Counted from the stretch's first letter, positions 27,749 through 43,441 are shown. The stretch is 64,000 bases of DNA from Candidatus Chazhemtobacterium aquaticus (GCF_009936135.1 NZ_CP047901.1:631927-695926); one strand, 5' to 3'. Made by a program: numbers and translations. The notes: generated by a model from the sequence alone, not told the origin.

Positions 27749-28609
27749 CTATTCTCCAAATAAATTCTGGTTACCCAGTGGCACAGTCTCTCCATCTCCG
27801 GAAACTCCTGTATCTACCCCTCTATAACCACGTATTGTCTCAATTGTTTCTATTTCCTCATCCTTTAATGCCCTTAAAATCCCAGTAGGATTAGCCTTAG
27901 ACGTCATCGGCAAATAATAGTTTCTTATCTCCAGCCTCATCTCAAGTATTTCTCCCGATTCTTGCTTAACCTCCTCACCTCGTGCAATAACCACATTCTC
28001 CACCACCTTAAGCGGCAGTGATCGCCCGACTCTGTCCAAGAAATCCTGAATTGCTAAAGCACTTCCTGAAATCGTCACCTCCATCATAAACCCTTCTGCC
28101 TTTGCTTCACTTTTAGCTGGCATTCCACTACTAGGTAATGCCACTGCTGGTGTTGGTGCTGCCGTTAAACCTTGACTTGAAGGCTTGTCATTTTCATCTT
28201 CTTCAATCATTACTGGATCAACCCTATATCCAACTATCTCAATACGCGCATCATTAGCCAATGTTCTAAGCGATCTTAAAGCAGTTCCCACATCCTTATT
28301 AAGTGGAAAAGCCATACCTAAAACTGTCTCATAGCCAGTTCGTTCCACCTCAAACTGTTCAAGAATTGCTAGTTTATTACGCAAACCTCTAAGCTGCTCT
28401 TGTTGTTTACTTAAATTATTTCTCATCTTAACCACTTCATTCCACTTTGGAACCAAGAACATTAACCCAATAGCCACCATTACCCCCAATTCCAACACCA
28501 ATACCATAACCGACTTAAGCACCCTTTTATCAACATCAATACCCAGCTCCATCCCCAAAATCGTTGACTGCTGCTTCCCGTCCTTACTGCTTACCTTTGA
28601 CTCTCTCAT
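27749..28609 (-). CDS. pilO: Type IV pilus assembly protein PilO-like
   Basis: N-terminal transmembrane helix, a coiled coil, and a C-terminal beta domain, located downstream of pilM and pilN. Confidence 0.55.
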   Translation of the reverse strand: MRESKVSSKDGKQQSTILGMELGIDVDKRVLKSVMVLVLELGVMVAIGLMFLVPKWNEVVKMRNNLSKQQEQLRGLRNKLAILEQFEVERTGYETVLGMAFPLNKDVGTALRSLRTLANDARIEIVGYRVDPVMIEEDENDKPSSQGLTAAPTPAVALPSSGMPAKSEAKAEGFMMEVTISGSALAIQDFLDRVGRSLPLKVVENVVIARGEEVKQESGEILEMRLEIRNYYLPMTSKANPTGILRALKDEEIETIETIRGYRGVDTGVSGDGETVPLGNQNLFGE

Positions 28610-29154
28610 ATTGCCTCCCTCAAACCTAACTCAATTCTTAATATATACAAGCCCTGGTCATTTCTCCTAACCGAACTTAACGCCACTTCATCAAACCTAG
28701 CGCTATCTTGAACCGTTACGGTAGACAATACCGCCAAAGCCCTACTCATCGCCTGCACTCCATTTGTCATTACCTCAACTACCACCACATCTCCCTCAAA
28801 TCTAACCGCCTCAATCATCACCTCATCAGGTAACAAATCATAAACATCAAGCAGCACCCCCGCAAAATCCTTACGCAAACCCACTAATCGATCTGCCTCC
28901 TCCGCTACAGACAATAATCTCCTATACCACAACTCAGTCTCTGCCATTTGAGTAATCTGCCCACTTACCACCTCAATATCGCTACTAACCGAAGCCACCT
29001 GTCTATTAGTTAGGAAGAAGTATCCATAATCTGCTCCAACAATGATCACAAAAACTACTACAGCTAATACCGACGCTAACTTAAGCCGATCAATTAACTG
29101 ATTAGCCTTAGCAATCTTTAATACCTCTTTTGATGCTAAGTTAACACTAATCAT
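28606..29154 (-). CDS. pilN: Type IV pilus assembly protein PilN-like
   Basis: 182 aa, single transmembrane helix (LASVLAVVVFVIIVGADYGYFFL) plus a periplasmic-type domain, directly after pilM. Confidence 0.6.
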   Translation of the reverse strand: MISVNLASKEVLKIAKANQLIDRLKLASVLAVVVFVIIVGADYGYFFLTNRQVASVSSDIEVVSGQITQMAETELWYRRLLSVAEEADRLVGLRKDFAGVLLDVYDLLPDEVMIEAVRFEGDVVVVEVMTNGVQAMSRALAVLSTVTVQDSARFDEVALSSVRRNDQGLYILRIELGLREAI

Positions 29155-29159
29155 CTTGA

Positions 29160-30164
29160 CTATCCTCGAGCCGTTGCCCCAATTACCGGCGCATATACTG
29201 CCCCTAATTTTGATTGATCACCTGTTACCTCTAAACCCTCAAATGGGTTACCAATAGCTACCTCAACACCCAACTGGGCCGTCATCCACTGAACCAATCC
29301 GGGAGTCAATGCCACACCTCCAGCAATAATAACCCTAGCCATCTGCCCACCTGGAAAACTCTGAGTATAATAACTTACCGCTCGCTTCATCTCACCAATT
29401 ACACCATCAAGCACTGGCTTCATCGCCAAGAGTAACTTACCCTCCAAAACATTACTCTGTACTCCATACGTTCTCTTGTACTCCTCAGCCTGCTGCAGTG
29501 TTAACTGCAAACTTGCTGTGATCGACCTGGTCAAAGCTACTCCTCCCGAACCAAACTTATATACAAACAAAAGTTGATCGTTTTCAAAAACTCCAATTCC
29601 CATTCCAGTCGCTCCCATAATAGCTACCATGGTCGCCCCTGTTAGCTTTCTCTCCAATGCTATCGCCCGTGAGGTCGTCACTAGTTCCGGTTCAATCCGC
29701 TCCGGCTCCAAACCAATCTCTGCAAACACCTCCATTAAACCATTGACTAACTTTTTATCTGCGGCCGCTAAATAAACCCTCATTTTTTCTCCCCCCGTCC
29801 TCTTAACTGGCCGATCAACCACTTCCCAAGACAGCTCAACCTCATCAAGAGGTACTGGAATATACTGTTCTGCCTCCCACCTGATCGCACTCGACAACTC
29901 TGCGTCCGACAACACTGGTAAATTTATTACTCTCGAATAAACCACACTTTCTGGTACTACAATCCTAAAACGCCTCTCACTAATCTTATACTCAACCACC
30001 ATCCGTTTAATTACCTCAGCCAAAGCATCTCTCTCCTTCTCTGTCTCCACCATTACCTTACCCACCGGGTTGCTAATCATTCCCAGAACCTCAACTTTTT
30101 TCCCGTTAACCTTAGCTAACTTAATACTAGAACTCCCTAGATCAATTCCCAAACGAGCAGGCAT
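29160..30164 (-). CDS. pilM: Type IV pilus assembly ATPase-like protein PilM (actin/HSP70 fold)
   Basis: 334 aa. The N-terminal GIDLGSSSIKLA phosphate-1 motif and overall layout are those of PilM. Confidence 0.75.
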   Translation of the reverse strand: MPARLGIDLGSSSIKLAKVNGKKVEVLGMISNPVGKVMVETEKERDALAEVIKRMVVEYKISERRFRIVVPESVVYSRVINLPVLSDAELSSAIRWEAEQYIPVPLDEVELSWEVVDRPVKRTGGEKMRVYLAAADKKLVNGLMEVFAEIGLEPERIEPELVTTSRAIALERKLTGATMVAIMGATGMGIGVFENDQLLFVYKFGSGGVALTRSITASLQLTLQQAEEYKRTYGVQSNVLEGKLLLAMKPVLDGVIGEMKRAVSYYTQSFPGGQMARVIIAGGVALTPGLVQWMTAQLGVEVAIGNPFEGLEVTGDQSKLGAVYAPVIGATARG

Positions 30165-30208: not shown

Positions 30209-31057
30209 TTAATCAGTCTGAGTTAACTGACCACCCGAATACAAGGCTGCATCAAACACAACTGGTAACACCGGTAACGTTCTTATCGCCTCAACTTTTC
30301 GAACCACACCATCCGCCGTTGACCCCGTAGAGACAATCCTATATGCCTGATCAGGTAACAGCGACCCAACAGGCAAGGGAGACACTCCAATTTTTCCTCG
30401 GTTATACAACATTCTCACTCTAACAATCACATCCTCAGCCACAATTGGTACATTAGCTCTAGCTCCAAAACTAACACCCATAAAACTTCCTGGATTCACC
30501 GTTGCTGTATCAAAATTGTTCGAAGCTCTCCTGGTTGCATCTGGATCGAAAGCATAATGCACTGTTCGATAATCACTATCAGAAAACTGCTGATATTTAA
30601 TTACCTCCACTGCTCCAGTAGGGGACTCATTCGACTCACCCCGGTCTGCCCAATATATATCCAAACTTGTAGGTGGACTTGCCGAACCTGTCACATTAAC
30701 CTCAACCACCTCTCCAGTTTCGATTGCTACATTTGTCACCTGACCATCCGCTCCCTCACTTTGGGCATCAGTTTCAAAACTTGCCTCATTCACCGTCCCC
30801 TCAAAAGATCCACCGATACTAATATTCCTCAATGCTTCCTCAATACCCGCCTCTGCAGCCTTCAAGGCCTGAGATGAACTCTGTTCAACTCCTGCCAATC
30901 TCAAATCAGAAACTGATCGACTTACTACTGACAACACAATCACCCCCATCACCACCAATACCAATACCACTATCAACGCCACCTGACCTTGCTGATCTCG
31001 CACACCATTCTTCATAAACCCATTCTGACCAATTCTTCTTTTAGAGTCAAACATCAA
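30209..31057 (-). CDS. PilX-like pilus assembly/minor pilin protein
   Basis: The N-terminus QQGQVALIVVLVLVVMGVIVL resembles the PilX_N hydrophobic segment, and the rest is a beta-rich body. It lies within the pilin block. Confidence 0.5.
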   Translation of the reverse strand: MMFDSKRRIGQNGFMKNGVRDQQGQVALIVVLVLVVMGVIVLSVVSRSVSDLRLAGVEQSSSQALKAAEAGIEEALRNISIGGSFEGTVNEASFETDAQSEGADGQVTNVAIETGEVVEVNVTGSASPPTSLDIYWADRGESNESPTGAVEVIKYQQFSDSDYRTVHYAFDPDATRRASNNFDTATVNPGSFMGVSFGARANVPIVAEDVIVRVRMLYNRGKIGVSPLPVGSLLPDQAYRIVSTGSTADGVVRKVEAIRTLPVLPVVFDAALYSGGQLTQTD

Positions 31058-31566
31058 TAGTTCCTCAAATTAATCACTGATTCATAACTAGCCTCCGTTT
31101 CAGCTCCTCCACCGGCATCTGTTCTTACTGCATTAAACCTAACCGTCACCTGATCCGGAATTCCCTGCGACCTGACACACTCAAAAACCAAGTCAGAGAT
31201 CACCACCGCCTCTCCACTTATAACCGCCCCATTAGATGCCAATTGGCCGTTATCCAATGAAAAAACAGTGGACCTGCCATCCCAACTCTCCACCGTCAAA
31301 CTATCGCTTGTAGCCGGACAATCTCCACCACCAACACTAACCGATTGTGCATTCCTAACAAATCTTTCTAAGATAGACAAACTCATCTGAGCATTCTGAT
31401 CTAGAGTCATAATCGTATCCGCCTTAGTTCCACCCCTAAATGACCTAAAAAACATCCCCATAATCGTCACAATAATCATCCCCAAAATCCCTACTGTCAC
31501 CATTAACTCCATTAACGTAAATCCTTTTATCTTATGACCATTTCTTTTCATCATCTTACCTCCCAC
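31054..31566 (-). CDS. Prepilin-type pseudopilin (minor pilin)
   Basis: Class III signal KG/FTLMELMV (G-F-T-L-x-E) followed by a hydrophobic helix. Confidence 0.7.
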   Translation of the reverse strand: MGGKMMKRNGHKIKGFTLMELMVTVGILGMIIVTIMGMFFRSFRGGTKADTIMTLDQNAQMSLSILERFVRNAQSVSVGGGDCPATSDSLTVESWDGRSTVFSLDNGQLASNGAVISGEAVVISDLVFECVRSQGIPDQVTVRFNAVRTDAGGGAETEASYESVINLRNY

Positions 31567-31964
31567 TTACTTAAATAAGTACTCCCCGACACCGCATAAT
31601 CATTTGCTCCATCTACCCATGTTACCTCAACCTCAATCTCAATCTGCTCCCCAGGAACAATCTCGGTATACGAGGTTGTCAAGCTGTACACCGGATTAGT
31701 TCCGACCTGTTCGGTCGGATCAGTCCGGTTTCCCAATCCAAAAAAACCGTCAGGATCAGTGTCGCGCTCTCTTCTTGCCTCTTCCAACCTATTTTCAATC
31801 AAGTGCCTTGCTTCCACCCTTTCCTTGGCTACTCTGGTTGTCTTGATTCCGATTGTTACTGCCATCACCATACTAGTTAACACTAAACCCATCACTCCAA
31901 TCGCTACCACAATCTCAACCAATGACTGCCCTTGTTTCTTGTTGTGATTAATCATACTTTTCAT
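31551..31964 (-). CDS. Prepilin-type pseudopilin (PilV-like)
   Basis: KKQG/QSLVEIVVAIGVMGLVL prepilin-like N-terminus. Confidence 0.6.
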   Translation of the reverse strand: MKSMINHNKKQGQSLVEIVVAIGVMGLVLTSMVMAVTIGIKTTRVAKERVEARHLIENRLEEARRERDTDPDGFFGLGNRTDPTEQVGTNPVYSLTTSYTEIVPGEQIEIEVEVTWVDGANDYAVSGSTYLSKWEVR

Positions 31965-31965
31965 A

Positions 31966-32454
31966 TCAACAACCTCCGGGTAACTCGTCGCTCACCTCAA
32001 TCGAGCCAGCACTCCCAACCTCAACTTGATAATGATAGTTTATCTCAGGCACACATACCGTAATTGTCGCCGCCGTTGCTCCACCTTTTACCGAACCAAA
32101 AACAATCGTCCCTAAAGTACTACTTAACGTCACATCATTCATCTCAACCCTGGTTTCTGGAGGAACTGCCCCCAAACAAACAGCCGACATCACCACCGCA
32201 TCACTCTCAACAACTACCTGATAACCACTTAATGGAAAACTACCGCACTCAACCGGCCTCTCACCCGCCAACGCCTTTCTTTGTGCCTCACGTAATGTCT
32301 GCTCAACTACCTTCATATCCGCAATTCCCACTCGCTTATCTCTAAAATCTAAAAAAACCGCCATCCCCATACCCGACAACAAAGCAATTATCCCCACCGC
32401 CACAACCAACTCCACCATTGTAAAACCAGCTATACCAACTCTTCGACCTATCAT
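31966..32454 (-). CDS. Prepilin-type pseudopilin
   Basis: AG/FTMVELVVAVGIIALL prepilin motif. Confidence 0.7.
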   Translation of the reverse strand: MIGRRVGIAGFTMVELVVAVGIIALLSGMGMAVFLDFRDKRVGIADMKVVEQTLREAQRKALAGERPVECGSFPLSGYQVVVESDAVVMSAVCLGAVPPETRVEMNDVTLSSTLGTIVFGSVKGGATAATITVCVPEINYHYQVEVGSAGSIEVSDELPGGC

Positions 32455-32834
32455 GGATTATTCAAGCAATATGGACTGGTCTCACCACTTCCCTCCATAG
32501 TTGTAGCACACAAGGTGTACTGGGTAGGGGACACGTATGTATAACTATATCCAAAACCCGTCTGACCATCCTTTGGATCAGTTGGCACCGGGTCAAGATA
32601 AGTTTGTCCATCACAAACAATTGCGGTACCCAAAGAAGCTGGATACGCCCCACTTTCAGCTCGACATATCTCCAAAGCTGCCCTTATCTGTTCCAAGTCA
32701 CCTTTACGTTTACTGTCTCTGGCATTTGCATTTGTTGATGAGAAACTAGCCATCGCAATGCCTGAGATAACTGCAATAATCGTAATAACCACCAACAACT
32801 CAACAAAAGTAAAACCTGCTTCCTTTATTCTCAT
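32451..32834 (-). CDS. Type IV pilin / GspG-like pseudopilin (paralog 1 of 5 in tandem)
   Basis: EAG/FTFVELLVVITIIAVISGIAMASF plus the conserved RDSKRKGDLEQIRAALE block. Confidence 0.8.
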   Translation of the reverse strand: MRIKEAGFTFVELLVVITIIAVISGIAMASFSSTNANARDSKRKGDLEQIRAALEICRAESGAYPASLGTAIVCDGQTYLDPVPTDPKDGQTGFGYSYTYVSPTQYTLCATTMEGSGETSPYCLNNP

Positions 32835-33295
32835 TGTTTGTTTTGTACACAGAAATAATTCTTATCTCCCGTTCCAGTCCAGGTACAATCAGTTCCTGAT
32901 CGACCATATGCATTACCACCCCCAGCTGCCTCCATCTCCACACAAATACAGTACTCAGTTGCCGCACAGAATGCCCCTGATCCACCACTCCTCGTGTTAC
33001 CAGTCGGATCAGTGTACTCAAAACCCCACTTGGGATCAGTTGGTATCCCGGCTGATAAATAATCCTCATAACCAGTACAATCCGCCGCGCTCGGGTATGA
33101 ATACTTCGCTACCGCATTGTCTGCGTAATAGGCTTCCAAAGCATTAGCAATCGCCTCCAGATCTTGTCTTCGCCTCGAATCGCGACTCCGATTCTGTGCC
33201 GAACTATAAGAAACCGTTCCAATAGCCACCAAGATTCCAATAATACCAATCACAACCAACAGCTCAAGCAATGTAAAACCTTTTCTATCTTTCAT
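32831..33295 (-). CDS. Type IV pilin paralog 2
   Basis: KG/FTLLELLVVIGIIGILVAIG plus RDSRRRQDLEAIANALEAYY. Confidence 0.8.
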   Translation of the reverse strand: MKDRKGFTLLELLVVIGIIGILVAIGTVSYSSAQNRSRDSRRRQDLEAIANALEAYYADNAVAKYSYPSAADCTGYEDYLSAGIPTDPKWGFEYTDPTGNTRSGGSGAFCAATEYCICVEMEAAGGGNAYGRSGTDCTWTGTGDKNYFCVQNKQ

Positions 33296-33297
33296 AT

Positions 33298-33762
33298 TTA
33301 TGGCTCAGTTAAAGTATAACTATATCCATTAGTACACACCGAAGAGTTATTTGATCCACCTGGCTTATTCTTGTCAGCATCAGGATCAGCTGCGTTTTCA
33401 AGACAGGCAATCAAAAAATATTCCAATGGATCAACTGCTAAGTCGGCGTAATACCAATAATCTGGCCACTCATCAACCTGTCTATGTGTTGGGTCAATTG
33501 GAAACTCCTTCATGTACCCTCCGCTTACAATGACAGTTTGATAATCAATTCTTGATGGATACGTCTGAGGATTTTGATCATTCTTATACAACTCCAAGGC
33601 TTTCTGCACTTGATCCAAATCACCCTTTCTCTGAGCATCTCTTGCCCTCTCCCTGGCCCCTTGCAAGTTTACCGTCACCAAAGCCGTTAAAATGCCGATT
33701 ATCCCCACCACCACCAACAACTCAATCAACGTAAAACCTTTTTCGTTATTCTTGTTTAGCAT
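33298..33762 (-). CDS. Type IV pilin paralog 3
   Basis: KG/FTLIELLVVVGIIGILTAL plus RDAQRKGDLDQVQKALELY. Confidence 0.8.
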   Translation of the reverse strand: MLNKNNEKGFTLIELLVVVGIIGILTALVTVNLQGARERARDAQRKGDLDQVQKALELYKNDQNPQTYPSRIDYQTVIVSGGYMKEFPIDPTHRQVDEWPDYWYYADLAVDPLEYFLIACLENAADPDADKNKPGGSNNSSVCTNGYSYTLTEP

Positions 33763-34268
33763 GGCTCTGTACTTAATGGTGGTTCTAAATCAACATTAGC
33801 ACTACTCATACCATAAGTACACGCCTCACCAATAGCGGTACAGCTTTGCGTATACTCAACCCAGTTTGGATCTCGCTCATTCTCAAGCCGAGTATACAAC
33901 TGATAGCTTCTCTGATCAGTGCTGGTCAAGTATATATATGTCCAATCATTCTTTGGATCTACCGGCAACTGCTTCATGTATATCTTGTCAGTCGTCTCAA
34001 ACGCTTCACCCCACGCACAAGCATCATCGCCATCATTACATCCCCCCACCACACCACCGGTACATGCTCTTGGATACACTCCATAATCATTGTTATACGC
34101 CTCCAAAGCCCTGGCAATCTGCGACAAATCAGATTTTCTACCGGCATCTCTTGATTTCTCAAGACTAACTGCATAGGCAGCATAACCAACACTCGCCAAA
34201 ATACCCATAATCGCCATTGCTACCAAAATCTCCATTAACGTAAAACCCTTCACATCCTTAAACCTCAT
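33756..34268 (-). CDS. Type IV pilin paralog 4
   Basis: KG/FTLMEILVAMAIMGILASVG plus RDAGRKSDLSQIARALEAY. Confidence 0.8.
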   Translation of the reverse strand: MRFKDVKGFTLMEILVAMAIMGILASVGYAAYAVSLEKSRDAGRKSDLSQIARALEAYNNDYGVYPRACTGGVVGGCNDGDDACAWGEAFETTDKIYMKQLPVDPKNDWTYIYLTSTDQRSYQLYTRLENERDPNWVEYTQSCTAIGEACTYGMSSANVDLEPPLSTEPC

Positions 34269-34281
34269 ATCTTCAACTATA

Positions 34282-34872
34282 TTAGTTTATACAGCTTGGA
34301 TCAACTATACATCTATCCCCAGCCGCATTACATCGATAACCGGCTCCCGGACAACACGCACTACACTGCATCGGGAAACAATATTTAGTCAATGTTCCGC
34401 AAGTCGGATCAGCTCCGGTATCGATCACTACCTCGGCATCGCCATTGGTTACATAATAATTAAAACTCATGTCCCCCCCGGGACCACAACCATCACTGCA
34501 ACCGACTCGCTGAATAATCGGATCATTTGTCGCCTCAAGCCGCGCATAAATGTAAATCAAATTACACCCCAATTTTTCGTAAACGTAATAATGAACACTG
34601 TTATCTAAAGGATCACAGGGTACTCGGTCAAGATATGGCCTTAAAGACTCACTGCCACACTGCATTACATCCTCCTCAGGAAAACACAACGTATCATCGT
34701 AATAACCATACAAACCTCTCATCCACTCATTCATATCTGCCTTCCTCTGAGCATCTCTAGATTTCTTTAACTGATGGTCCCAAGCCGCGTATGACAAAAT
34801 GGCAAACATTGCCAGCAATGCTACTACTACCAACAGCTCAACCGTCGTTAAACCCTTCACTCCCTTCCTCAT
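34282..34872 (-). CDS. Type IV pilin paralog 5 with Cys-rich C-terminal domain (18 Cys)
   Basis: KG/LTTVELLVVVALLAMFAIL plus RDAQRKADMNEW, and a C-terminus full of Cys (CSACCPGAGYRCNAAGDRCIVDPSC). Confidence 0.7.
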   Translation of the reverse strand: MRKGVKGLTTVELLVVVALLAMFAILSYAAWDHQLKKSRDAQRKADMNEWMRGLYGYYDDTLCFPEEDVMQCGSESLRPYLDRVPCDPLDNSVHYYVYEKLGCNLIYIYARLEATNDPIIQRVGCSDGCGPGGDMSFNYYVTNGDAEVVIDTGADPTCGTLTKYCFPMQCSACCPGAGYRCNAAGDRCIVDPSCIN

Positions 34873-34929: not shown

Positions 34930-35736
34930 TTATCGCAACAAGCCAAAGTACCACTCCCAGATTAACTCATGCCACAACAAGGCCATCACCGTCCCTAATA
35001 CCAAGAAGGGGCCAAAAGGTATAGTTTGACCAAATCTCTTTCTCCCCAAAGCCAGCAACACCACAGCCACTACAGCTCCGCTCATAAACGACAACATTGT
35101 CGCCACAATAGTCCCCCTCAATCCCAATAACAATCCCAAGCTTGGTGCCAGCTTCACATCACCTAAACCAAACCCCTTTCTCTTCGTCAATAAATATAAC
35201 CCATAGAAAAATAACGCCAAGCCAATTCCTGCGACCACCGCCATCCAAAAATCCTGCGGTCTCATAATACCCATCACTACCAATGCCACCCTATAACCTA
35301 AAACTAAGACCAATAACAACATATTCACCGCATTAGGAATCACTCCATACCATAGATCAAAGACTAAAACTAACAGAAGTAATACTCCTACCATTAGCCA
35401 AAAATATGGCTGGACGAGTTCTAGTGGAGTGTTAACGAGTAGGAAAAATCCTTTACCCATCACATACCACCAAACAAACAACAACGCAGTCAATCCCTCA
35501 ACCACGGGATACTGCCAAGATATTCTTTTCTTACAATGCGCACATTTACCCCGAAGAAATAAAAAAGAGAGTAGGGGAATGTTGTGCTTCCACGAAATCT
35601 GCTTTTTACAGTGAGGGCAAACTGATCTACCCTTCAAAGGCGACTCACCATAGATAGTTCGATATACCACCACATTAAGAAAACTTCCAATCACCAAACC
35701 AAATATAAAAAGCCAAAACACCCAGTACCAAAACAT
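34930..35736 (-). CDS. pilD: Prepilin peptidase (A24 family) PilD
   Basis: N-terminal zinc-binding CPHC...CAHC tetrad, polytopic membrane domain with the catalytic-Asp motif region (GLGDVKL). Confidence 0.85.
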   Translation of the reverse strand: MFWYWVFWLFIFGLVIGSFLNVVVYRTIYGESPLKGRSVCPHCKKQISWKHNIPLLSFLFLRGKCAHCKKRISWQYPVVEGLTALLFVWWYVMGKGFFLLVNTPLELVQPYFWLMVGVLLLLVLVFDLWYGVIPNAVNMLLLVLVLGYRVALVVMGIMRPQDFWMAVVAGIGLALFFYGLYLLTKRKGFGLGDVKLAPSLGLLLGLRGTIVATMLSFMSGAVVAVVLLALGRKRFGQTIPFGPFLVLGTVMALLWHELIWEWYFGLLR

Positions 35737-35866
35737 GCCCTCAACTATACAATCTCTCCATCAAACATTAAACCCCTAATCAAACACCAACCAAATAATG
35801 GATACCTTTAACTAAAATACCCACCGGAAGGTGGGTATTCCCAATTCAATTTAAAAACTTTTGGTA

Positions 35867-36430
35867 TTACTTAGCACACCAGTAACAAGCGGCAGTTCCT
35901 GGACCAATAGTTGCCTTGTTCTCAGTGGTGCAGGTCGTAGCAGATAAATCAGTCTGACCATCCTGACTGTATCGAGTACCTGCATCAGCAAACACGGACT
36001 TGCTAGTTGGCTCAAAACAGATCGACAGAGACACTGCGGAAGGCGAGTTTATATATATGTTACCAGCCGTGCCACTTCCCACTGCAGACATAAAGTCAGG
36101 CTTAAGCTCTCCATCAGTAATCAGCGGATCAATACACCCAGCTGTGTTTAAAGCACTCAAAGCCAGAGGCCCACCAGAGAAATCAGCCACACAAGCATCA
36201 TCATTCCAGGGCAAGTCACCATGAGTAGCGTAGTACCTGATAAATCCGTTGTGCAACTCAACTACTTGGTTACGAGTATTGCTGTCTCGACCTTTCTTAA
36301 GCTGTTCAAATGGGTCTACTGCCGCCAACAAACCAGCTGCCAAGATTCCCAAAACTCCGATAACAATAAGTAGCTCAATTAATGTAAAACCTTGGGGTTG
36401 GTTGTGTCTTATCATGATTTTCATTTTCAA
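35867..36430 (-). CDS. Type IV pilin (candidate major pilin, adjacent to pilC and pilD)
   Basis: QG/FTLIELLIVIGVLGILAAGLLAAV prepilin N-terminus; 187 aa with C-terminal Cys pairs. Confidence 0.75.
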   Translation of the reverse strand: MKMKIMIRHNQPQGFTLIELLIVIGVLGILAAGLLAAVDPFEQLKKGRDSNTRNQVVELHNGFIRYYATHGDLPWNDDACVADFSGGPLALSALNTAGCIDPLITDGELKPDFMSAVGSGTAGNIYINSPSAVSLSICFEPTSKSVFADAGTRYSQDGQTDLSATTCTTENKATIGPGTAACYWCAK

Positions 36431-36543: not shown

Positions 36544-37752
36544 CTAAAACTGACTAGTCAAATTATAAATTGGCATAATTACTGCCATCACCAAAAATCC
36601 TACTCCCACACCCATCACCGCCATAATCATCGGTTCTATGGCTGTAGTTAAGTTCTTCACTGCCTGTTCTGACTCACCCTCAAAATAATCTGCCAACTTA
36701 TCAAGAATCTCATCCATCTTTCCCGTTTGCTCACCCACCGCAATCATTTGAGGGACAATCGGCGGAAACTCACCCAGCTCTGCCAAAACCAGACCCAATG
36801 ACTGACCTTTCTCGACTTTTGAGGCCGCCATCATCATCTTCGCTCCAATTATCTTACTTCCCACTGCAGCTGAAGTAATCCTCAAAGCATCCAAAATAGA
36901 AATACCTGCACTAATCAACAAGCTCATTGTTCTGGCAAACTCTGTCATTACCATCTTCAATCTAAGCTCTCCTACCACCGGCATCTTCATTAAAGTCTCC
37001 TCAATCATCACACTCCCCACGTCAGTTCTCGACCACTTAAGAAACACATACCCAATCGCACCAAAAATTAACAACAACAAATACCAGAACTTAACCGCAA
37101 AATCACTCGCCCCAATCAATATCTGAGTAGGTAGAGGTAGTTCTGCCCCAAAATCCTTATACATCTCAGTCATCCTCGGCACCACAAAGATCATCATAAT
37201 TACCGCCACAATCACCATACCAATAATAATGATCATCGGATAAACCATGGCCCCTTTAGTCTTGCTTCTAAAATCTCTTTGCTTCTCCATTGTCTCAGCC
37301 AATCGCTTCAACACTTCATCAAGAACACCAGCCGCCTCACCTGCCTTTACCAAAGCGATGTATATATCATCAAACACTCCATCGCCAGACTCCTCCATAG
37401 CTATTGCCAAAGTTTTACCGCCCTCTACTTCCTCTAAAACTTTTGACACCACCCGACTCATCGCTGGGGGACTCTGTACTCGCAAGATAGACAATGACTC
37501 AGTTAGCGGCAAACCAGCCGACACCATCGTCGACAACTGGCGAGTAAAGTTAACCACATCATCCACCTTCACCCGCTCAAAGCGACGCATAATCTCCTTA
37601 ATCTCACTCTCTTTTTCTTCCTCTACCTTGATAATTAAATAACCTCTACCCCTAAGCAGTTTAGAAGCATGGTCCAAACTCGACGCCTCAAGTACTCCAT
37701 CCAATGTCTTACCTTCTTCATTCTTTACTCTATAACCAAACTGCTTAGCCAT
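36544..37752 (-). CDS. pilC: Type IV pilus platform protein PilC (GspF family)
   Basis: 402 aa with two GspF-type repeats and three transmembrane segments; typical PilC N-terminus and layout. Confidence 0.85.
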   Translation of the reverse strand: MAKQFGYRVKNEEGKTLDGVLEASSLDHASKLLRGRGYLIIKVEEEKESEIKEIMRRFERVKVDDVVNFTRQLSTMVSAGLPLTESLSILRVQSPPAMSRVVSKVLEEVEGGKTLAIAMEESGDGVFDDIYIALVKAGEAAGVLDEVLKRLAETMEKQRDFRSKTKGAMVYPMIIIIGMVIVAVIMMIFVVPRMTEMYKDFGAELPLPTQILIGASDFAVKFWYLLLLIFGAIGYVFLKWSRTDVGSVMIEETLMKMPVVGELRLKMVMTEFARTMSLLISAGISILDALRITSAAVGSKIIGAKMMMAASKVEKGQSLGLVLAELGEFPPIVPQMIAVGEQTGKMDEILDKLADYFEGESEQAVKNLTTAIEPMIMAVMGVGVGFLVMAVIMPIYNLTSQF

Positions 37753-37758
37753 ATATCT

Positions 37759-38847
37759 CTACCTTCCTCTAATCAGTCTTGATAAATCAGCTGGTCGTAA
37801 ACTAAATTCTCTAGCTTTCTCAAAACTGACCACACCCTGATTTACCCAGTTAGCCAGTGAACTCTCCAAAGTCATCATCCCGAGTTCCGAGGAAGTCTGG
37901 ATAATACTATCCAACTGGTGACTCTTACCCTCTCTAATATTGTTTCTAACTGCTGGTGTTGCTACTAGCACTTCAGCTGCTGGCACCCGACCCGTACCAT
38001 CAGCCGTTGGTACTAATCGCTGCGAAAAAACAGCCTCAAGTGAGTTAGACAGCTGCATCATTACCTGGTTCTGCTGATCCTCTGGGAAACTGTCTACAAT
38101 TCGATCTATCGTTTGGGCCGCACTGTTAGTATGCAAAGTAGCAAACACCAAATGACCCGTCTCGGCCACTGTCATCGCCGCCGCAATCGTCTCTGGGTCA
38201 CGCATCTCTCCCACCAAAACCACATCCGGGTCTTCTCGCAACACACTCCGCAACGCCCCCGACCAGGTTAGAGTATCATCACCCATCTCTCTCTGAGAAA
38301 TCAGTGAACCTCTATTGCTATACACATACTCAACCGGATCCTCAATTGTCACAATATGTTCCGTCCGGTTTTGATTTATCTCCTCAATTACAGCCGCCAA
38401 GGTTGTACTTTTTCCATGGCCGGTCGGACCAGTCACCAACACAAACCCCTGGCGCAATCTGGCAAACTGGTGACAAACAGCTGGCAACTTCAGTTCATCA
38501 ATACTAGGTATCCTCTCAGCTATAGCTCGAAGCGCCAAAGCCAAACTTTGTTTCTGCCAATAAGCATTGGCTCGAAACCTTCCCACTCCCTCCAAAGCCA
38601 CCGAAAAATCAAGCTCGCGAAACTTAACCAATTTATGCTGTTGCTCCTCACTCAAAATTGAAAAAACCAGCTGTTCAACCTGTTTTGAATTCAATACCTC
38701 CATGTTCTCTATTGACCTCAAGGTCCCGTGAACCCTAATCGTTGGTGGAGATCCAACAATCAAATGCAAATCAGACGCCCCCATCTTAAATGTGGTCGTC
38801 ATCAAGTTATGCATTATCGTTTTATATGTCGCGCTGTTATTTTCCAT
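37759..38847 (-). CDS. pilT: Twitching-motility/retraction ATPase PilT
   Basis: 362 aa with GPTGHGKSTT Walker A, Asp box, and His box ATLHTNSAAQTIDRI; about 360 aa is diagnostic of PilT rather than PilB. Confidence 0.85.
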   Translation of the reverse strand: MENNSATYKTIMHNLMTTTFKMGASDLHLIVGSPPTIRVHGTLRSIENMEVLNSKQVEQLVFSILSEEQQHKLVKFRELDFSVALEGVGRFRANAYWQKQSLALALRAIAERIPSIDELKLPAVCHQFARLRQGFVLVTGPTGHGKSTTLAAVIEEINQNRTEHIVTIEDPVEYVYSNRGSLISQREMGDDTLTWSGALRSVLREDPDVVLVGEMRDPETIAAAMTVAETGHLVFATLHTNSAAQTIDRIVDSFPEDQQNQVMMQLSNSLEAVFSQRLVPTADGTGRVPAAEVLVATPAVRNNIREGKSHQLDSIIQTSSELGMMTLESSLANWVNQGVVSFEKAREFSLRPADLSRLIRGR

Positions 38848-38851
38848 ATGT

Positions 38852-40660
38852 TTAAGTTCTTGAAACCCTTAATACTTCATCAATAGTAGTCGATCCATCC
38901 AATGCTTTCATATAACCATCCTGAGTCATTAAAATCATCCCTTCGACCACTGCTTGTTTCTCGATATCCGAAGAGGTTGCTCTCTGCATGATTAATTGTC
39001 CAATCTTTGTAGTGATTGGCATTACCTCAAAAATACCAATTCTTCCTTTGTACCCACTCCCGCCACAAACCTTACAACTATCACCCTGTCCACGGCTTAA
39101 CAACAACTCAACATTCTTCTCAGCCGCTTTCGCCACCATCTCAGGGTGCGACTGCCGCCATGCTTCGTACAAAGGACCCAACACTCTCTTGATATCCTCA
39201 ACCACCTCAGGCTCTGGCACATAATCCACCCGACAAGCACTGCAGTTCTGCCTTACCACCCTCTGAGCCACCACTGCCGTAATTGAGCTAGCCAATAGAT
39301 ATGGCTCCGCTTTCATATCCAATAACCTAGGCAAAGCACCAGCTGCATCATTAGTGTGCAAGGTCGCATAAACCATATGTCCCGTCAACGAAGCCTGAAT
39401 AGCCAGATCTGCTGTTTCCTCATCACGAATCTCACCCACCATGATAATGTTAGGATCTTGCCTCAAAAAGCTTCGCAGCCCAGAGGCAAAAGTTAAACCT
39501 GCCCCAGGATTCACCTGAACTTGATTGACCCCTTCAATCTGATACTCTACCGGATCCTCAAGCGTCACCACGTTCACTTTAGTTGTACTTACTATCGACA
39601 AAATTGAATACAAAGTGGTCGTTTTACCTGAACCTGTCGGACCAGTAATCAAGATAATACCGTGAGGCATCCGCACCGCATCCTGCAAATTAGCCAGGGC
39701 CTTACCTCTTAATCCCAGTTCCGGCAAAGTCAAAGCCTGACCAGTTTTTTTAAGCAACCTCATCACGATTTTTTCACCATTTACTGTAGGCAAGGAAGAC
39801 ACACGCAAGTCCACCTCTTCCTCACCCATCACATAATTAAACCGACCATCCTGGGGCAATCTTTTCTCATCAATCTTCATACCCGCCAAGATCTTGATTC
39901 TTGAGATCACCGCGTCATGAACTGACTTCGGCAACACCAACTTTTCTTGTAAAATTCCATCAATTCTGTATCTGATCCTCGTCCGATTCACCTGTGGTTC
40001 AATGTGCACGTCGCTGGCTCTAGCTTTGATAGCAAACTCCAACACTGTACTTACAATCTTGGCGATCGGTGCTTCCTTGATCAACTCACCTAAATTCTTA
40101 GCATCAACCGTCGTTACTCCAGTCTGTGTCACTCCACCCTCTTCGAGAGCCTGGGTCACTTCTCCCGACAAACTCTCTGTGTATCGCTGTTCAATCGCCG
40201 CCTTCAAATCCGCTGCCACAGCCATAAACGGCTGTATCTTCATCCCAGACTTAGCCTGCACAAAATCAGTTACAGTCAAATCAGCTGGATTAGCCATCGC
40301 CACCGACAATATTCCTTCTGCTTTATCAAGCGCAAAAGGCAACACCTGATACCGTTTTGCCACCGACTCTGGAATCAACCCCAACGCCTCAGGAGAAGCG
40401 CCTAAGTTTGATACATCCACAAAACCAACACCCATCACCTCAGCACGGGCCTTGACCACTGCCTTCTCAGTCGCATAGTTATGCTCCAAAATCAACTGAT
40501 CCGCCTTCTTACCCTTGTTGACCACCTCCAACCTTACCTTATCAAACTGTTCCTGAGTAATCTCACCTCTAGCCAGTAAAATTTCCTCCACACTCGACAA
40601 ACCAGCAGTTACTGGCGCACCACTCAACGTGTTATTAGTACCCGGGGCAGGCATATTCAT
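38852..40660 (-). CDS. pilB: Type IV pilus extension ATPase PilB (GspE family)
   Basis: 602 aa with GPTGSGKTTT Walker A and a tetracysteine zinc motif (CSAC...CKVCGGSG) with GspE domains. Confidence 0.85.
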   Translation of the reverse strand: MNMPAPGTNNTLSGAPVTAGLSSVEEILLARGEITQEQFDKVRLEVVNKGKKADQLILEHNYATEKAVVKARAEVMGVGFVDVSNLGASPEALGLIPESVAKRYQVLPFALDKAEGILSVAMANPADLTVTDFVQAKSGMKIQPFMAVAADLKAAIEQRYTESLSGEVTQALEEGGVTQTGVTTVDAKNLGELIKEAPIAKIVSTVLEFAIKARASDVHIEPQVNRTRIRYRIDGILQEKLVLPKSVHDAVISRIKILAGMKIDEKRLPQDGRFNYVMGEEEVDLRVSSLPTVNGEKIVMRLLKKTGQALTLPELGLRGKALANLQDAVRMPHGIILITGPTGSGKTTTLYSILSIVSTTKVNVVTLEDPVEYQIEGVNQVQVNPGAGLTFASGLRSFLRQDPNIIMVGEIRDEETADLAIQASLTGHMVYATLHTNDAAGALPRLLDMKAEPYLLASSITAVVAQRVVRQNCSACRVDYVPEPEVVEDIKRVLGPLYEAWRQSHPEMVAKAAEKNVELLLSRGQGDSCKVCGGSGYKGRIGIFEVMPITTKIGQLIMQRATSSDIEKQAVVEGMILMTQDGYMKALDGSTTIDEVLRVSRT

Positions 40661-41395: not shown

Positions 41396-43441
<2,046 letters not shown>

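Follow-up and report, generated by a model that had tools for sequence, protein, structure and literature searches.

A conserved set of GspG-like prepilin genes within the type IV pilus operon of Candidatus Chazhemtobacterium aquaticus

Does a row of five divergent prepilin genes supply a pilus with exchangeable subunits, or with a fixed set of parts? This question is raised by a 64,000-nt stretch of DNA (NZ_CP047901.1:631927-695926, here called the window) from Candidatus Chazhemtobacterium aquaticus, an ultrasmall Microgenomates bacterium found in groundwater of a deep thermal aquifer. Ultrasmall Patescibacteria are believed to rely mainly on type IV pili for host attachment and DNA uptake. 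To our knowledge, the roles of the pilus subunits in this group are almost unknown outside Saccharibacteria. The window contains a complete type IV pilus operon in the order pilB-pilT-pilC-pilin-pilD, the five genes, four more pilin-like genes and pilM-N-O. The operon is on the minus strand, and the five genes form its middle (32451-34872). A preliminary description of the sequence read them either as a repertoire that offers alternative pilus subunits or tip adhesins and serves host range or antigenic diversity, or as stoichiometric minor pilins of a priming complex. We find that four of the five are a fixed set kept across the related Microgenomates examined.

Conservation of the five prepilin genes

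In transcription order the genes are A196, B170, C154, D154 and E127. Their open reading frames (ORFs) of 196, 170, 154, 154 and 127 aa bear out the description of five consecutive tandem genes. A196 (34282..34872) is a prepilin ORF in which a linker joins a GspG-like pilin module (about residues 1-145) to an 8-Cys module at the C-terminus; it has 14 Cys in total, where 18 had been counted. B170 (33756..34268) is a GspG-like prepilin with 6 Cys. C154 (33298..33762), also GspG-like, has 2 Cys and a C-terminal GYSYTLTxP that is conserved among its orthologs. D154 (32831..33295), for which both orthologs and a structure model are available, has 6 conserved Cys and a conserved C-terminal YFCVQNQQ. 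The smallest, E127 (32451..32834), has 4 Cys conserved among its orthologs and a C-terminal CxxNP. The gene overlaps reported earlier are present, with 7 nt at 33756-33762 and 4 nt at 32831-32834.

The leaders of all five proteins are 6-9 residues long, basic and end in Gly, and are followed by a hydrophobic helix. Mature residue 5 is Glu in 5/5 (Glu5), and residue 1 is Phe in four and Leu in A196. The shared leader KG/FTLxELLVV of the preliminary description is exact in both 154-aa proteins and takes variant forms in the other three. Similarly, the RD-x2-R-x2-DL...ALE block is exact in four proteins, and A196 has RDAQRKADMNEWMRGLY instead. The PF07963 (N_methyl) domain scores 29.3-36.3 bits in B170, C154, D154 and E127, against a cut-off of 21.2. 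A196, with a mature N-terminus of LTTVE and not FTLxE, scores 14.2 bits, under this cut-off, and it is recognised as a type IV pilin by its motif and not by its PF07963 score. We conclude that the five are type IV prepilin genes encoding class III signal peptides, and that they are real genes, because they have orthologs under purifying selection.

Relatives were gathered at two levels of divergence. A single-sequence scan of genome contigs with PilD found no close relatives, and exact-protein look-ups of PilD and PilC homologs were used instead. The strain-level set consists of ten loci (L001-L010) encoding an identical PilD. The distant set consists of five loci with DNA, obtained via PilC homologs with 75% (L012), 67% (L011), 65% (L013), 61% (L014) and 57% (L015, from Collierbacteria) identity. 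A sixth distant locus was represented by gene calls only. Identities between orthologs and between paralogs were obtained by BLASTP on proteins from which the signal peptide and alpha1-N had been removed, and are referred to as head identities.

The operon order is the same in L011-L015 and in the sixth locus, where the gene sizes also match. Each of the five distant loci contains a single positional ortholog of B170, of C154, of D154 and of E127, with 35-67% head identity (37-63% for B170) and E-values from 1e-11 to 1e-53. Identity between paralogs is 26-36%. The ortholog groups are each marked by a different invariant Cys pattern and a different C-terminal motif. Towards L015, head identity is 35-44% for the five genes and 35% for the 187-aa pilin encoded upstream, which is the candidate major pilin. 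The heads of B170, C154, D154 and E127 diverge no faster than this pilin, and more slowly than F162, G137 and H170, the three pilin-like proteins encoded immediately downstream.

Among strains, the ratio of nonsynonymous to synonymous polymorphism (pN/pS) of the five genes is 0.02-0.11, compared with 0.02-0.08 for PilB, PilT, PilC, PilD, PilM, PilN and PilO. The E127 gene is 100% identical at the DNA level in 9/9 strain loci that cover it. Thus the set of B170, C154, D154 and E127 is fixed. Its order is unchanged across the related Microgenomates examined, an order-level clade that extends out to Collierbacteria, and purifying selection on these genes is as strong as on the assembly machinery.

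We also looked for a means of switching among the genes. The longest tract common to the N-terminal cassettes is 88 nt, with a DNA identity of only 60-76%, and so offers no substrate for gene conversion, which was rejected on this ground. No inverted repeats or long tracts of DNA identity useful for switching were found at the locus. All five are complete genes with start codons and leaders in one coupled operon, and not silent, 5'-truncated cassettes. The pilE/pilS system of Neisseria is similar in having several pilin-related sequences with a conserved N-terminal and a differing C-terminal part. It differs in that the copies here are complete and expressed-looking, with no silent cassettes, identity tracts or strain hypervariability.

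The preliminary description itself held that uniform one-to-one orthology of all five genes across relatives would argue for fixed minor pilins, and one-to-one orthology is the situation of B170, C154, D154 and E127 in 5/5 distant loci. With these orthologs, the low pN/pS values and the lack of conversion tracts, the proposal of a variable repertoire fails for four of the five genes. A remnant of it survives for A196, which has orthologs in only two of the five distant loci (L012 and L013) and a C-terminal tail in one of these two.

Two further observations concern the same alignments. An apparent truncation of the E ortholog in L012 is an artefact of a 100-N scaffold gap with duplicated flanks, and the gene is intact. 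In addition, strain divergence is mosaic across 32451-33762 when compared with L001-L009. C154 has 87.5% DNA identity, with 50 synonymous differences (pS about 0.40), and in the same strain pairs E127 is 100% and D154 95.9% identical; amino-acid changes are not in excess. Such a pattern suggests that strains have recombined in blocks smaller than a gene cluster.

A shared GspG-like core and the tail of A196

The heads of the five proteins had been described as unrelated in sequence. In a plain alignment, all five have in common, past the conserved block, the motifs YP, (Y)(L/M)xx(V/I)PxDP, YxY and LE. Using hhalign, we compared ortholog-group profiles restricted to the part downstream of the conserved block. 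The head-only probabilities were 95% for A-B (E 3e-8), 96% for B-C (5e-9), 89% for B-E, 82% for C-E and 78% for D-E, and by these pairwise matches all five heads are linked in one chain. The heads are therefore related, contrary to the first description.

In terms of family, TIGR01710 (GspG) is the top NCBIfam match for 5/5 proteins, at 21.7-53.8 bits and thus below its cut-off of 88.85; the highest score comes from residues 7-126 of B170. PF08334 reaches at most 19.7 bits in the window proteins, against a cut-off of 21. In orthologs, at E<=0.1, it is found in 6/6 of group B, 4/6 of C, 5/6 of E and 1/6 of D. The B-group profile matches the heads of solved GspG crystal structures. GspH, GspI and GspJ matches of the five proteins cover the N-terminal helix only.

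AlphaFold (AF2) models of A196 and D154, with mean predicted local distance difference test (pLDDT) values of 85.7 and 76.7, have the lollipop shape of pilins. When these two models were searched against the PDB with Foldseek, the top matches were pilins and a pseudopilin, with TcpA first for D154 (probability 0.96).

Judged by these comparisons, the conserved cassette is the ordinary alpha1 helix of GspG-like pilins, with the block corresponding to alpha1-C, and the “variable heads” are diverged forms of a single fold. GspG/PulG of type II secretion systems shares the alpha1-C block RD-x2-R-x2-DL...AL-x-Y and the PxDP-YxY head core. The five differ from it in missing both curated cut-offs and in heads that carry extra disulfides. 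The operon also differs from type II secretion, with a PilT-like second ATPase and PilM, and no secretin or GspL. Since the cut-offs are missed and the operon is one for a pilus and not for type II secretion, the five proteins are GspG-like in fold, but not GspG. They are probably ancient paralogs within a single GspG-like pilin family, differentiated in function, in a cell without an outer-membrane secretin.

A196 stands somewhat apart. The next-best match of its group is the B group, and its head profile matches B at 95%; with its orthologs limited to L012 and L013, we therefore read A196 as a lineage-specific duplicate of the adjacent B170. Its last 41 residues (156-196, at 34285..34407) form a Cys-rich C-terminal module with the consensus PTCG-x4-5-C-x5-C-x2-CCPG-x4-C-x7-C-x5-C, and 8 Cys are invariant in the tail alignment (A5). 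The module is kept in L013 and in several metagenomic relatives, and is missing from the L012 ortholog. In the A196 model, the pilin module is followed by a low-confidence linker (146-151) and then by a separately folded tail at pLDDT 76-84.

A search with the single A196 protein gave 4 clusters, and a search with the A-type alignment gave 525 related Patescibacteria pilins. In many of these 525, a Pro/Thr-rich linker is present together with a Cys-rich tail, of which there are several kinds. Unrelated tails on the same pilin core (P0124-P0240) include YCxTHxCYCCANSAY...NNCDMGP...CYNETPC and IYVYACDxxGxCNxYExGHPxLxxCPxTF. One relative, P0248, has additional Cys-rich segments ahead of an A196-type tail.

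A profile of the A196-type tail had 27 matches among 1.84 billion representative proteins. About 20 of the 27 are pilin-sized (175-330 aa) and carry the module at their very C-terminal end. The pilin core is the same in all 16 tail-bearing proteins inspected, and the linker before the module differs widely in length. No Pfam family matched the tail. With Foldseek, the tail gave a weak, non-significant resemblance to spider cystine-knot toxins (E>1). These matches point to an 8-Cys module family that occurs C-terminally in a single pilin family, with Patescibacteria pilins as its only observed carriers.

Modular pilins are pilins with a grafted functional module, such as PilB and PilC of Streptococcus sanguinis (PMC8179133). 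Only A196, among the five, combines a pilin module, a linker and a separate C-terminal module. It resembles PilB and PilC in this architecture and in belonging to a monoderm-type pilus operon (PMC8179133). Unlike the vWA and lectin modules of S. sanguinis, which have several hundred residues, the module of A196 has about 41 residues and 8 Cys, with no Pfam family. A196 is thus a possible modular pilin and a candidate adhesin.

Another related system is that of the Saccharibacteria TM7x (Nanosynbacter lyticus; PMC11623550), which we compared by description. It has one small, highly expressed major pilin, plus a number of minor pilins similar to type II secretion (T2SS) pseudopilins, and some of these minor pilins have extra C-terminal domains, as A196 does. 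Unlike the operon described here, TM7x encodes two pilus systems, spread over four loci, with modules of beta-jelly-roll and beta-propeller type, and no four-gene GspG-like set is described for it (PMC11623550).

Proposed place of the five pilins in the pilus

The candidate major pilin (35867..36430) has 187 aa (182 aa according to gene callers), 6 Cys and a C-terminal CYWCAK, with orthologs in all relatives. Its gene is alone between intergenic regions of 113 and 130 nt. At 35814..35841, 26 nt past its stop codon, direct folding reveals a terminator-like, GC-rich hairpin of 12 bp followed by UUUUAGUU. The stem is of the type GGAATACCCACC-TTCC-GGTGGGTATTCC, followed by TTTTAGTT, which would give a U-run. 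Hairpins with T-runs are found at the same site in L011 and L014.

From A196 to X282, the last of the four downstream pilin-like genes, the spacings are 13, -7, 2, -4, -4, 1, -16 and -4 nt. All nine genes are thus separated by at most 13 nt or overlap. The five genes do not form a unit of their own, since the close spacing continues through the four further pilin-like genes. The lone 187-aa gene, the hairpin and the nine packed genes suggest that the major pilin is highly expressed and that the nine others are produced at lower, roughly matched levels.

Four pilin-like proteins are encoded downstream. F162 (31966..32454) is a GspH/FimU-like pilin and candidate core minor pilin (PF12019 GspH, E=0.0024; weak in 4/6 orthologs). 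G137 (31551..31964) is a small pilin with the mature N-terminus QSLVE and a GspI-like candidate (TIGR01707 gspI, E=5.6e-4, below cut-off). H170 (31054..31566) is a pilin with N_methyl in 6/6 orthologs and no specific family, and is a candidate for the GspJ position by gene order only. G137 and H170 have orthologs in all relatives. X282 (30209..31057) is a large PilX_N-like protein (PF14341, E=3.3e-4) and a candidate tip cap; its residue 5 is Ile, so that it is without Glu5. In L013 (12010-16420), the third downstream minor pilin is the last gene of the operon, and ribosomal protein genes take the place of the X282 and PilM/N/O orthologs.

Minor pilins are divided into core and system-specific ones, and a PilH/I/J/K complex of core minor pilins starts assembly and caps the tip (PMC10191384). 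A core set contains one capping member without Glu5. No such member is found within the five, and X282, outside the five, is a candidate for this role. The priming-complex wording of the preliminary description suits F162, G137, H170 and X282 better than it suits the five, for which GspG is the best family and which all have Glu5. We weakly favor these four as the better candidates for GspH/I/J/K-type initiation and tip-cap proteins.

Accessory minor pilins, each with its own conserved function, are known from other systems (PMC10191384). They are similar to the five in having Glu5 and a major-pilin-like head, next to a separate PilH/I/J/K-type set and a distinct major pilin. Unlike the known cases, there are four to five of them here, from a single GspG-like paralog family and in fixed order inside the main operon. 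The known accessory pilins are species-specific, whereas the set described here is conserved across an order-level clade.

We lean towards the reading that the five are accessory minor pilins with separate conserved roles. All five would be cleaved and N-methylated by PilD. The nine-gene, translationally coupled string, downstream of the terminator of the 187-aa pilin, would give low and roughly matched pilin levels. The alpha1 helices of the five would bring them into a filament whose main subunit is the 187-aa pilin. There they would be accessory, non-core minor pilins, each with a role not duplicated by the others, and comparable in this to Neisseria ComP, PilV and PilX. Assembly would be started, and the tip capped, by a GspH/I/J/K-like complex of F162, G137, H170 and the Glu5-less X282. 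A196 would expose its disulfide-rich module, a putative binding module, on or close to the surface of the pilus.

Several points weigh against this reading. The “minor” status of the five is read from gene position, spacing and the terminator. A consensus scan for promoters and terminators did no better on this sequence than on shuffled sequence, and it missed the hairpin later found by folding. The assignment of F162, G137, H170 and X282 to GspH/I/J/K comes from sub-threshold matches and gene order, and PDB profile searches with these four groups returned N-terminal helix matches only, or nothing. The Foldseek matches of the A196 and D154 models to solved pilins are weak (E>=0.08). Finally, four to five extra GspG-like pilins as conserved as these exceed what is seen in the compared model systems, and a structural role is possible, for example in a heteropolymeric filament.

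This last point leads to an alternative that we judge unlikely, in which the five, or some of them, are alternative or co-major pilins that polymerise in bulk, either as distinct filaments from one machinery or as a heteropolymer with the 187-aa pilin. The wide and narrow pili of Thermus are an example of distinct filaments, and PilE1/PilE2 of Streptococcus sanguinis of a heteropolymer. All five have Glu5 and a GspG-like, major-pilin-like head, and they are as deeply conserved as the candidate major pilin itself (35-44% and 35% head identity to L015). Filaments built from two major pilins exist (PMC10191384), and this also counts in favor of a co-major role. However, the five genes are downstream of the terminator-like hairpin and are packed with the GspH/I/J/K-like genes, and the gene of the 187-aa pilin is isolated between long intergenic regions. 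Five heads differing in size and Cys pattern would also be hard to place in one regular lattice.

It is improbable, in our view, that the five constitute the initiation or tip complex, or a part of it, together with the four downstream pilins in an enlarged complex of nine subunits. The close spacing and overlaps across all nine genes, and the fixed order conserved in all relatives, would agree with such a complex. Pseudomonas PilE, a major-pilin-like minor pilin that joins the tip complex to the filament, would be a precedent. On the other hand, none of the five is nearer to GspH, GspI, GspJ or GspK than to GspG, Glu5 is present in all of them, and the downstream genes already supply GspH-like, GspI-like and Glu5-less PilX_N-like proteins.

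A variable repertoire for host range or antigenic diversity is very improbable: the patchy presence of A196 and its tail and the several different Cys-rich tails on related Patescibacteria pilins speak for it, but four of the five genes have one-to-one orthologs in every relative examined, the strain pN/pS is low with E127 invariant, all five are complete genes with leaders in a single operon, and the DNA identity tracts or inverted repeats that switching would use are lacking.

One more specific role was considered for E127, that of a ComP-like DNA receptor, and was rejected. PF16732 (ComP) scores 18.3 bits on E127, against a cut-off of 27.3, and is found at E<=0.1 in 6/6 E orthologs (best 5.9e-7). 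A search of solved structures with the E-group profile did not match ComP. The E127 head has a calculated pI of 4.5 and one Lys after alpha1, which in this crude reading of the sequence, without a structure, gives no electropositive surface.

Taking the accessory reading further, Microgenomates pili might have an unusual fixed architecture, with four ancient GspG-like accessory pilins at defined places, in a multi-subunit tip-proximal segment or a heteropolymeric filament, in addition to a GspH/I/J/K-like cap and for a total of nine accessory subunits. A fifth, modular pilin of some lineages would then carry an interchangeable, disulfide-rich mini-domain, from a new module family found only on Patescibacteria pilins, by which these episymbionts recognise a host or a surface. 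This extended version is speculative and we consider it doubtful.

Setting of the locus and its meaning

The rest of the operon encodes the pilus machinery. PilB, the extension ATPase, is at 38852-40660, the PilT-like second ATPase at 37759-38847 and the PilC platform at 36544-37752, and matches to PF00482, PF00437 and PF05157 cover this PilC-PilT-PilB block (36544..40660). The prepilin peptidase PilD is at 34930..35736 (PF06750, 3.3e-32; PF01478, 4.4e-11). Prepilin peptidase, extension ATPase and platform thus share the operon with the five pilins. In L013, the PilD call is shorter, with 222 aa. PilM is at 29160-30164 (PF11104, 1.8e-45), and genes at the PilN and PilO positions are at 28606-29154 and 27749-28609, with a weak T2SSM_b match in the PilM-N-O block (27749..30164). 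The window contains 10 prepilin-like genes, every one within the pilus operon, and no pilin gene was found outside it in the 64 kb.

PilC matches the NCBI protein of Ca. Chazhemtobacterium aquaticus with 100% identity. The locus is already covered, in general terms, by the paper on this genome, which reports type IV pilus genes at a single locus, among them major and minor pilins, and the lack of a PilQ secretin (PMC7143001). The strong strand disparity of Ca. Chazhemtobacterium aquaticus and its relatives is a subject of the same paper (PMC7143001). In the window, GC skew is one-sided and very strong, from -0.15 to -0.55 in every 2-kb window (1-64000), independently of gene orientation.

An identical PilD protein is present in contigs from at least 77 blocks of a public assembly collection, from many different samples, and the organism or close strains are therefore widespread in sequenced environments. 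Regarding a nearby gene, the window (41474-43441) and L002 encode a full GyrB of 655 aa. In L001 (2306-4156), L005 (315-2165) and L011 (4355-6983), the gyrB call has 309-353 aa, without the HATPase_c part and with small unannotated ORFs instead. An insertion or a split gene could lie behind these short calls, as could an assembly problem.

For the most part the finding is ordinary, and it leaves the current understanding of type IV pili unchanged. Mildly new are the four-gene GspG-like accessory set conserved across the examined Microgenomates, and the 8-Cys module family on Patescibacteria pilins only. What appeared to be a repertoire is a fixed, deeply conserved set, and it provides a parts list for the Microgenomates pilus, with one likely major pilin, four GspG-like accessory pilins, a GspH/I/J/K-like set and a lineage-dependent modular pilin. 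Within this list, the 8-Cys module is the single element that could be a lineage-specific binding determinant.

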